DNA of 64,000 nt, taken from NCBI RefSeq assembly GCF_041248615.1, contig NZ_CP158426.1. One strand, 5' to 3'. The DNA comes from Escherichia coli (GTDB lineage Bacteria > Pseudomonadota > Gammaproteobacteria > Enterobacterales > Enterobacteriaceae). The first letter of the stretch is position 1, and each line of letters starts with the position of its first letter. This document shows positions 1 through 3,000 of the stretch, one piece after another. Position numbers: made by a program.

Positions 1-3000
1 TCCGTCCGGTGGAAGGCAGTAAGTCGCTGATTAAACAAGTCCTGGATATTGGCGCGCAAACTCTACTAATCCCGATGGTCGATACTGCCGATCAGGCACG
101 TCAGGTGGTGTCTGCCACGCGCTATCCTCCCTACGGTGAGCGTGGTGTCGGGGCCAGTGTGGCACGGGCTGCGCGCTGGGGACGCATTGAGAATTACATG
201 GCGCAAGTCAACGATTCGCTTTGTCTGTTGGTGCAGGTGGAAAGTAAAACAGCACTGGATAACCTGGACGAAATCCTCGACGTCGAAGGGATTGACGGCG
301 TGTTTATTGGACCTGCGGATCTTTCTGCCTCGTTGGGCTACCCGGATAACGCCGGGCACCCGGAAGTGCAGCGAATTATTGAAACCAGCATTCGGCGGAT
401 CCGTGCTGCGGGTAAAGCGGCTGGTTTTCTGGCTGTGGCTCCTGATATGGCGCAGCAATGCCTGGCGTGGGGAGCGAACTTTGTCGCTGTTGGCGTTGAC
501 ACGATGCTCTACAGCGATGCCCTGGATCAACGACTGGCGATGTTTAAATCAGGCAAAAATGGGCCACGCATAAAAGGTAATTATTGATATCAAAGGCCCA
601 TGGGGATCGGCTGTGGGCCTGTGTTAATTAGTGGTTATTCGCTGCCAGATCGGCTTCGCTTAGCTGGGTGGCTGCGAGCACCAGGTCACGATCAATGCCC
701 TGTACCAGCATGCGCAAAGCAATTTTAATGGCTTGTTTACGCATACCTTCCTGCAAACCTTCTAATTTACCCTCCTGCCAGCCTTCAAGCTTACCTTCCT
801 GCCAGCCAATCTGATGCCCTTCCTGCCTCAGCCGTTCAGCAATAGTCATCAATCTCTCCTTTTAATGACAGTTCGGAATATCAGCATCAGTGAGTTGGGT
901 TGTCGCCAGCACAATCTCACGTTCAAAGCCCTGCTCCAGCATGCGCAAGGCAATTTTAATGGCTTGTTCATGCATGCCTTCCTGCAAACCATCTAATTTA
1001 CCTTCTTGCAAACCTTCTAATTTACCTTCCTGCCAGCCTTCAATCTTACCTTCCTGCCAGCCAATTTGATGCCCTTCCTGCCGCAGCCGTTCAGCAATAG
1101 TCATTAATCTCTCCTTTTGTAGTGGTGAACGTTCGGCAATCTCCTCAATAAAACGGGTGAAACGGGAGGTATCGCCGCATTGCAGCAGATAATTAAACAG
1201 CGTTTGTAGCTGGCTGTCATTAGTGAAGCCTCTAACCAAAAGCGTGGTGATCCTGTCGACCATACCGATTAAATCGCGGTCGCGAATATGCTTTTGAATC
1301 AGTTCAAGCAGAGCTATACGCCGATGTTGCATGATCTCATCGTCAGGTACGATGGTGATATCCACCAACGGAAAAGCTTCGGTGTACAACTGCCGGGCAA
1401 GTTGCGGATCGTCAAACTCATCCAGCCAGTTGAGTGAGTACGGGTAGGGCGAGGTTTCGCCATGATAAAACAGCAATGGCACCACCAGCGGAACTCTGTC
1501 ATAGCCTTTATCCAGGTGACGCTGCATGGCGGCAGTGGCATAGCGCATTAGCCGAAAAGCCATATTCTTTTCTGCAGAGCTTTGATGTTCAATCACGCAG
1601 TAGATATAGCCTTCACCGTCGCTGGTTTCCACAGACCACAAAACATCCGAGTAGTAAGCGCGTAAACTTTTTTCAATAAAGCTGGTGGGTTCCAGGCGTA
1701 AAGTTTGCAGGTTGCAAAGCTTGCGCAGCGGCTCTGGTAGATGTATTTCCAGAAAATCCCGAGCGGTTTCGGGTGTGAACATAAAGGTTTTAAACACCGC
1801 ATCATGCGGGGAGGAGGTTGTTGATTCGGTCATGGTTGTCCGTCACCTGATATTTATGATGACGCGACATTACGGTTATCCCAGGCCTTTGACATCTGCC
1901 AGTTTCAGCCTTTGCGAGACGTTTTCAGAGGAATTTTCACTGCGTTGCAACGCATACATTGGGCACGGAATCGTGTACGCAAAAATGCCCGGTAACAACA
2001 TGCTTACCGGGCATCAGAAAGGAGTTTAAGCCAGCGCCTGGGCCAGCAGCGTAATCGGATGTTCGCAGCGAAGACTTGTGGACATCTCAATCTGCCATTT
2101 GCAGGTTTCGCAGTCGGTAACCACCAGATCTGCGCCGCTTTCTTCTATCTGACGGAACAGTGGTGCGCCGATGGCTTGTGAGGTGGGGTAGTTCTCTTTT
2201 TTGAAACCGTAAGTACCTGCAATACCGCAGCACTGGGAATCCAGCACCGTTAACTCAAGCCCCGGGATTTTACGCAACAGCTCCAGGGTGTAGAGCGTCC
2301 AGCCCATTTTTTCCATATGGCACGGAGTGTGATAAACCACTTTCAGCGGCAGCGGTTTCAGCGGCAAGGTTTTGCCTTCGTCCAGCTTGCGCCACAGCCA
2401 GCGGGTCGCCAGTTCGATGTGATCGCGCAAGCCTTTGTTGTCGACATTCAGCACTTCCGGATATTCGTCGCGCAGGGCAAATGTACAGGTTGAGGAGGTG
2501 GCAATCACCGGAATGCCTTTTACTCCCACTGCTTCGCGGATCGACTCTACATTTGTGATTGCCTGTTTACGTGCTTTATCGGTAAAGCCGTTGGCGATCA
2601 GCGGTACGCCGCAGCATTTTTCTTTGCTGAGCAGTTGTACACCGGTACCCATTGCGTTGAGCACTTTAATTAAATCTTTGCCTAACTGCGGATGGTTGTA
2701 GTTAACGAAGCAGCCGTGAAAGAAAGCCACCTGGTCTTTATATTGTGCCTGCTGGGCTGCCACGCTGCGATACCAGCGACGGAACGTACCGAAGGAGTAT
2801 TTCGGTAGCGTGCGGCGATGATCGATTTTTAACGCCGCATCAAGCAGCTGCCGCACTGGTTTCAGCGAGGTAGCGGTATTGACGATTGGTGCGAATGGCG
2901 TGGAAACGCTACCCATCAGGTCGGTATGACTCAACACAAAATTGCGCAGCGACGGGCGTGTGGTGTCATATTTCGCCCGCGCGCGCTGGATGATATCGCC

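Follow-up and report, generated by a model that had tools for sequence, protein, structure and literature searches.

The rpnE-ypaA locus of Escherichia coli: a nested small-protein gene, its tandem copy, and repeat numbers that usually differ between the two

For all five rpn genes of Escherichia coli, Ribo-RET peaks at in-frame internal start codons were reported by Meydan et al. 2019 (10.1101/520783), who also noted that the C-terminal internal product of RpnE closely resembles the small protein YpaA. Zhong et al. 2023 (PMC10400941) presented Onc112 and retapamulin ribosome profiles for rpnE-ypaA/rpnESs, detected SPA-tagged RpnE-S and YpaA in K-12 by immunoblot, and renamed ypaA as rpnE-Ss; by differential RNA sequencing (dRNA-seq), an internal transcription start site was found in every rpn gene. 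In the same study, RpnA, RpnB and RpnC were tested, and the short protein (RpnS) prevented its own long form (RpnL) from inhibiting growth, inducing the SOS response and acting as a nuclease. The structure of RpnA-S is a dimer of three-helix bundles; repeats of four amino acids (aa) in helix 1 differ among strains and set the pairing specificity, and in the case of RpnC a mismatch of one repeat abolishes neutralisation. A downstream copy of the S gene can disappear via deletion or fusion (all PMC10400941), and these points are repeated in a commentary by Koonin (PMC10400984). Here, we describe the rpnE-ypaA locus contained in a stretch of 64,000 nucleotides (nt) of E. coli (contig NZ_CP158426.1 of assembly GCF_041248615.1), which is called the window in the following; the region described in detail comprises window positions 1-3500.

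We assign this region with high confidence to the rpnE-ypaA locus of E. coli, a module of the published 'gene-within-a-gene' toxin-antitoxin/phage-defence type. Its anatomy, homology, population distribution and repeat polymorphism are given below as observed; the internal small protein, the ypaA copy, the arrangement and the repeat polymorphism are already known for the rpnE locus from the literature. All genes of the locus lie on the minus strand. The gene rpnE (yfaD; 862..1833) encodes the 323-aa protein RpnE-L, consisting of a PD-(D/E)XK nuclease domain and a C-terminal S domain. The nested in-frame open reading frame (ORF) rpnE-S (862..1104; 80 aa plus stop) corresponds to RpnE residues 244-323, and ypaA (rpnE-Ss; 628..849; 73 aa plus stop) encodes an S-domain protein that stands by itself and whose tail has diverged (IDRDLVLAATQLSEADLAANNH). 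Strain KE55 has the same locus with 100% identity. K-12 has the same position between glpC and rhmA, the internal Shine-Dalgarno (SD)-ATG, the duplication junction and the S-domain framework; its identity to the window locus is 94.6%, and the lengths differ: RpnE and YpaA consist of 323 and 73 aa in the window, whereas they consist of 299 and 61 aa in K-12. The window therefore does not derive from K-12.

The duplicated unit is the SD plus the S ORF. Copy 1 (864..1118; 255 nt) comprises the SD, the S ORF and the first base of the stop codon; copy 2 (630..863) has 234 nt, and the junction between them lies within an A-run. Homology sets in exactly at AAAAGGAGAG (1118 in copy 1 and 863 in copy 2) and ends with the stop codons. 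An alignment of 862-1125 with 620-870, both on the minus strand, gave a mean column identity of 86% with one 24-nt and one 3-nt gap. At the protein level, RpnE-S and YpaA are identical at 57 of 81 positions (70%; expectation value E = 7e-36): the first 19 N-terminal residues are the same, and helix 2 is near-identical. An independent repeat search returned the same pair as 744-863 versus 999-1118 (95%) and 649-807 versus 880-1038 (82%). Within the window, 66 of 69 positions are identical in the leader and N-terminus and 43 of 48 in helix 2, and identity in the tail is about 64%. A tandem duplication of the 3' end of rpnE as ypaA had been proposed in an earlier note on this DNA, which named non-homology of 628..864 and 862..1120 as the finding that would speak against it; the alignment shows homology, and the coordinates of the note were correct to within about 2 nt.

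Direct reading also confirmed that both copies open with AAAGGAGAG-N4-ATG. In rpnE, the SD AAAGGAGAG (1109..1117) is located 4 nt 5' of the internal ATG (1104-1102), and in ypaA the corresponding elements are found at 854..862 and 849-847. The first A of the ypaA SD is the final base of the rpnE stop, i.e. the TAA codon (862-864) and the SD share one base, and ypaA follows 12 nt past the rpnE stop. The ATG at 1104 is the in-frame codon 244 of 323; the in-frame internal start claimed previously thus stands, but its product has 80 aa (865..1104 = 240 nt) and not 81. A regular-expression match found the SD of the internal start in 66 of 66 related loci. For ypaA, automatic ORF calling chose a TTG at 852, which gives 74 aa; the ATG at 849 (73 aa) is better spaced relative to the SD, and public assemblies use it as the start. 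The window keeps all sequence elements of the intragenic small protein, which matches the published K-12 Ribo-RET, profiling and immunoblot results, and the view that ypaA is a free-standing copy is supported both by the homology found here and by the published likeness of the RpnE C-terminus and YpaA.

Both copies contain a repeat tract. Reading by codons, we found 7 units of 12 nt in rpnE/rpnE-S (976..1059), which are 6 more than in K-12, and 5 such units in ypaA (745..804), where rpnE has two more; all positions are on the minus strand. The window copies thus differ by two units (24 nt) in tract length. Tandem Repeats Finder reported arrays with a 24-nt period at 977-1057 (3.4 copies, 87% matches) and at 744-807 (2.7 copies), whereas codon-wise both tracts are made of units of 12 nt or 4 aa. 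Counted as extra units, the window has 6 in RpnE and 4 in YpaA, and K-12 has 0 and 1. Across strains (66 loci and 120 database proteins), counts of 0, 1, 2, 3, 4, 5, 6 and 8 occur, so that the tracts change in length by steps of 12 nt and not of 24. The earlier note was therefore right in that the repeat number differs between the copies, but not in assuming a variable unit of 24 bp; the comparison across E. coli genomes, which it had suggested, revealed 0-8 extra units, and variation in repeat number, which the note ascribed to slippage or recombination, is also reported in the literature (PMC10400941). The RpnE-S tract begins at residue 16, within the 8-20 residues past the methionine where 4-aa repeats are expected for an RpnS protein. 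Length changes in ypaA are all in frame and are multiples of 12 nt. A few rare variants of YpaA contain further in-frame duplications within the protein: P0079 has an 11-aa segment of helix 2 twice, and in P0003 and P0069 the 8-aa block 'HQIGWQEG' occurs twice. Slippage thus also affects segments other than the canonical units of 4 aa. The translated tracts (976-1059 and 745-804) also gave matches to FliH equivalogs with E about 1e-8, which are far under the cut-offs. Similarity of the tract to FliH and to Pfam Yae1_N was sub-threshold throughout and was rejected as most likely compositional, as these are helical repeats rich in E, G, K and L.

In order to compare the registers of RpnE-S and YpaA, a haplotype was defined as the pair of extra-unit counts (RpnE-S, YpaA). 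The 66 loci yielded 13 haplotypes, namely (0,1), (0,4), (0,5), (2,5), (3,1), (5,0), (5,1), (5,2), (6,2), (6,4), (6,5), (6,6) and (8,4), of which the rare ones have to be taken with caution: some loci are short-read metagenome assemblies, where repeats are possibly mis-assembled. Counts were equal in one of the 13 haplotypes, and 1.4 are expected if the marginals assort independently. The first 12 two-copy loci had suggested that RpnE-S and YpaA are never equal; this was ruled out by locus L062 with 6 and 6 units. The counts support independent variation rather than avoidance, and the register of YpaA is not tied to that of RpnE. Four common YpaA alleles, each standing beside an RpnE of different count, were found in 17,920, 5,829, 2,368 and 1,414 blocks of the public collection; the exact YpaA protein of the window accounts for 2368 of such blocks.

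A described counterpart of this arrangement is RpnC/RpnC-S/RpnC-Ss, which like rpnE has a nested S gene, in some strains a downstream free-standing copy, and a 4-aa tract in helix 1. According to the phylogeny of Zhong et al., the RpnC duplication is independent of that of rpnE (PMC10400941), and specificity by repeat number is experimental for RpnC and not for RpnE. A parallel cited in PMC10400941 are the TAEL repeats of HsdS in EcoR124I/EcoR124II: there, too, an in-frame change by 4 aa (12 nt) within a helix alters specificity. The repeat of this type I restriction specificity subunit sets the spacing of the DNA target, whereas the rpn repeat is proposed to set protein-protein pairing.

As to the long protein, RpnE residues 8-209 match Pfam PF04754 (Transposase_31, YhgA-like) over model positions 1-202 of 203 with E 6.4e-88. 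RpnE scored 173.9 bits with TIGR01784 (cut-off 52.1) and, over its full length, 718.1 bits with the NCBIfam equivalog NF007418 (cut-off 583). The RpnA equivalog aligned to RpnE from 1-256 on 1-256 with zero offset. Kingston et al. 2017 mutated residues D11, D63, E82, Q84, R94 and D165 of the PDDE motif in RpnA (PMC5350276); in the translation of the window gene, D11, D63, E82, Q84, R94 and PDDE163-166 are found at the RpnA positions. By this reading, the active-site residues of the PD-(D/E)XK type are intact in RpnE. PADLOC, which has no Rpn model, returned a single weak and irrelevant match ('putative invertase').

For the short domain, precomputed Pfam assignments of the public collection place PF27070 (HTH_Rpn_C) on the exact window YpaA and at the C-terminal end of the 323-aa RpnE next to it; the Pfam library that was searched with the window proteins did not contain PF27070. 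DUF4351/PF14261 was considered for the S domain and rejected, as this library search gave no such match and only a compositional one to Yae1_N. The only solved structure related by sequence is that of RpnA-S (PDB 7TH0): residues 1-13 and 47-76 of RpnE-S align to it, with a sequence E of only 0.16. The N-termini of the two proteins are identical over 11 residues, and helices 2 and 3 of RpnA-S align with residues 47-76. The 49-aa RpnA-S lacks the repeat insertion, whereas the window RpnE-S has 33 extra residues between the aligned blocks; given the position of these blocks, the repeat tract would lie inside helix 1, in agreement with Zhong et al. (PMC10400941). An AlphaFold2 (AF2) model of RpnE-S had a mean predicted local distance difference test (pLDDT) value of 69.8 and merged helices 1 and 2 into one long helix running through the tract. 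Its top Foldseek match was again 7TH0 (probability 0.99, but E 0.17; the model is moderate). The model suggests that the protein is helical; we make no further structural claim from it.

rpnE is present in 5420 of 5426 complete E. coli genomes and is always chromosomal. A 96-nt probe covering the junction between an RpnE-type tail and ypaA matched 3133 of the 5426 genomes (about 58%) at an identity of at least 95%, and E. fergusonii as well as a cryptic Escherichia clade share this junction. About 42% of the complete genomes have rpnE and lack the junction. In four single-copy loci that were read, RpnE carried the ypaA-type tail in each case (4/4). In locus L008, an RpnE-type tract of 5 units continues into a ypaA tail, and the crossover point falls within helix 2; this is a recombinational fusion. 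Between the paralogs, the synonymous divergence (pS) is 0.62 for the tail and 0.18 for the 5' part, and orthologs of E. coli and other Escherichia lineages differ synonymously by 0.1-0.27; these values, as well as the ratios of nonsynonymous to synonymous divergence (pN/pS) of 0.2-0.44 for ypaA and 0-0.07 for RpnE-S, are based on few sites or substitutions. The divergences would fit an old single duplication, the 5' halves of which may have been kept similar by gene conversion. The ratios suggest that constraint on ypaA is more relaxed than on RpnE-S yet not neutral, i.e. that ypaA is under purifying selection. In 57 of 57 two-copy loci, the ORF, SD and ATG of ypaA are intact.

Taken together with the published work, the following mode of action can be proposed. 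rpnE encodes RpnE-L, a predicted DNA endonuclease of the PD-(D/E)XK (YhgA-like) type that ends in a small helical domain. Additional initiation at the strong SD-ATG at 1104 would give this C-terminal domain alone, i.e. the 80-aa RpnE-S. An ancient tandem duplication of exactly the SD plus S segment created ypaA (RpnE-Ss, 73 aa) 12 nt downstream, which would be read from rpnE/rpnE-S transcripts. By analogy to RpnA, RpnB and RpnC, the S protein may bind via its long first helix to the identical domain of the L protein and block the nuclease, and the number of 4-aa repeats in this helix may decide on pairing. That RpnE-L is a toxin and RpnE-S its neutraliser is suggested by homology, and the same is true for any role of YpaA. 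The view of RpnS proteins as antitoxins in the earlier note agrees with the published neutralisation experiments, which covered RpnA, RpnB and RpnC. The recently described principle is that of an antitoxin encoded within its own toxin gene, the pair being 'bar-coded' by repeat number, which was rediscovered here from raw sequence. It matters for phage defence as well as for the annotation of genes within genes.

Since the duplication begins only 14 nt before the ATG, ypaA received no promoter copy of its own, and a terminator scan found no terminator-like site between the internal start and ypaA; for these reasons, ypaA is most likely co-transcribed with rpnE and rpnE-S. Possibly, ypaA is also translationally coupled via the overlap of TAA and SD. 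With low confidence, a candidate internal promoter (ATGACA-17 nt-TTTAAT; 1192..1220, minus strand) was read by hand about 90 nt 5' of the internal ATG. In the convergent gap between ypaA and rhmA, the terminator scan marked, on the plus strand, a GC-rich hairpin (594..620), which is a candidate bidirectional terminator. Its T-run is weak on the minus strand; it probably ends the rpnE-ypaA transcripts, which for ypaA we infer.

Several points weigh against the proposed mode of action. Overexpression of K-12 RpnE caused no toxicity, no SOS induction and no stimulation of recombination (PMC5350276); this negative result of Kingston et al. is not decisive, as the construct still made RpnE-S. The main text of Zhong et al. 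2023 contains no antitoxin experiment with RpnE-S or YpaA, and among the papers searched from the Rpn literature of 2023-2026 we found nothing specific to RpnE or YpaA. A consensus promoter scan returned 0 sites, so that it is by reasoning that co-transcription is assigned; the confidence of the AF2 model is only moderate; and the equality of RpnE-S and YpaA counts in only one of 13 haplotypes argues against YpaA being a cognate antitoxin.

The annotated name of rpnE is 'ISNCY family transposase', and one might regard the gene as an ISNCY-family transposase of a mobile element and the duplication as a by-product of transposition. This is in line with the names of NF007418 ('ISNCY family transposase') and of the Pfam domain ('Putative transposase, YhgA-like'), and with a 13-nt imperfect inverted repeat, GATATCAAAGGCC / GGCCTTTGACATC, which brackets the rpnE-ypaA unit at 586-598 / 1884-1896. 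About one such repeat with one mismatch is, however, expected by chance in 1.6 kb, and as candidate ends of an insertion sequence (IS) the pair was discarded as chance-level (repeats of 12-13 nt only). Moreover, the junction query found one place per genome (median), all of them chromosomal; in all fetched loci, the neighbours are glpC and rhmA (or what replaces rhmA), also in other Escherichia species; the 255 nt are copied head to tail, which is not a target-site duplication; and both Zhong et al. (PMC10400941) and Koonin (PMC10400984) argue against a transposase function. We consider this explanation extremely improbable. Nearly as implausible is the idea of ypaA as a functionless fragment of a gene in decay. 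It could appeal to the pseudogene flags set by PGAP and to the Pfam library search, in which YpaA gave only compositional matches. Against it stand the intact ORF, SD and ATG in all two-copy loci together with the pN/pS values given above, the one junction shared by 3133 genomes, E. fergusonii and the cryptic clade, the detection of YpaA protein in K-12 (PMC10400941), and the fact that all length changes are in frame. The RefSeq labels of rpnE as transposase and, in most genomes, of ypaA as pseudogene are mislabels.

A different question is what YpaA does within a functional module, and here the usual mismatch of register between RpnE and YpaA raises the issue of the purpose of ypaA. A role implied in the earlier note is that of a redundant, cognate back-up antitoxin to the RpnE-L encoded upstream. 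The similarity of YpaA to RpnE-S described above speaks for it, as does the presence of the protein in K-12 (PMC10400941), and Koonin pointed out that a second copy may decouple toxin and antitoxin for flexible regulation (PMC10400984). Yet the counts are unequal in 12 of the 13 haplotypes, including those of the window (6 versus 4) and of K-12 (0 versus 1), a mismatch of a single unit abolished neutralisation in RpnC (PMC10400941), and the third-helix tail differs strongly between the copies (nucleotide identity of 64%, pS of 0.62 between the paralogs). Because the count of YpaA usually differs from that of the preceding RpnE, calling YpaA a spare cognate antitoxin is an extrapolation, and we regard this role as doubtful. 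If the register rule of RpnC is applicable, the window YpaA with 4 extra units and RpnE-L with 6 would not form a cognate pair, and YpaA would not neutralise RpnE-L; a role as cassette, regulator or decoy is then possible. As a tentative alternative, YpaA may be a non-cognate cassette, that is, a stored C-terminal domain that can be fused to rpnE by homologous recombination, and perhaps also a helix-turn-helix (HTH) regulator in its own right. One fusion step would change repeat number and tail together. The genomes with rpnE and without the junction (about 42%), the ypaA-type tail in all four single-copy loci, the crossover in helix 2 of L008, the homogenised 5' halves (pS 0.18) next to old tails (pS 0.62), and the loss by fusion mentioned by Zhong et al. 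(PMC10400941) are in agreement with such a cassette. On the other hand, such fusions may simply reflect neutral deletion from one direct repeat to the other and not a selected switch, reverse events (re-duplication) were not seen among the loci, and the purifying selection on ypaA is deduced from few substitutions. Fusion alleles are put at roughly 40% of E. coli, and a count mismatch was present in every common haplotype queried. It is thus conceivable, though we would not call it probable, that YpaA is a deliberately out-of-register S domain, which would serve either as a cassette for re-tailing and re-specifying RpnE or, directed at something other than the resident RpnE-L, as a regulator or decoy.

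Some further observations concern the annotation and the surroundings of the locus. In most two-copy genomes, the PGAP/RefSeq entry for ypaA is that of a pseudogene ('incomplete; partial in the middle of a contig; missing N-terminus'). Flagged in this way are loci L002-L007, L011, L013, L014 and L017 (window 628-861), including KE55; the flagged copies nonetheless have an intact ORF, SD and ATG, and the 61-aa ypaA allele of the K-12 type is annotated as a normal coding sequence. In L016 (NZ_CP157104.1, strain UTME-10; 1566-3523), the insertion sequence IS2 splits rpnE after about 633 nt, and the rest of the gene and ypaA follow downstream. Contig ends are involved in L029 and L030 (GCA_016586755.1): an rpnE locus is found at both ends of one 5.19-Mb contig with different rpnE frameshifts, which looks like an unclosed overlap of a circular assembly with indel errors of long reads and not like biology.

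By ORF calling, the locus of the window is flanked by the 3' part of rhmA/yfaU (9-587, plus strand) on one side, and beyond 1833 by glpC and then glpB, up to the end of the 1-3500 region. In L063/L064 (E. fergusonii), L065 (Escherichia sp. E4385) and L046, the rpnE-ypaA junction is kept, and downstream an IclR-type fragment and a gene with a MoCF_biosynth domain take the place of rhmA. Since rhmA is missing in L063-L065 and L046, the rhamnonate operon is absent or deleted beside the locus in these cases.

Outside the region described in detail, the minus strand of the window encodes at 8822-9721 a full-length LysR-type regulator of 299 aa. Its last 66 residues match NCBIfam NF007272 (a 68-aa 'hypothetical protein'), which we take to be the YfaH remnant of K-12. 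Beside it, on the plus strand, a 396-aa transporter of the major facilitator superfamily (MFS) is encoded at 9873-11063. The strain thus appears to keep here genes (8822-9721, 9873-11063) that are presumably truncated or missing in K-12. Finally, two Rfam families were found above their gathering scores. The nucleoid-associated RNA naRNA4, derived from repetitive extragenic palindromic (REP) elements, lies at 44846-44922 (plus strand), directly 3' of a 949-aa ORF ending at 44846. The small RNA MicF is located at 48583-48676 (minus strand), upstream of a 375-aa ORF (49010-50137) that is presumably ompC.

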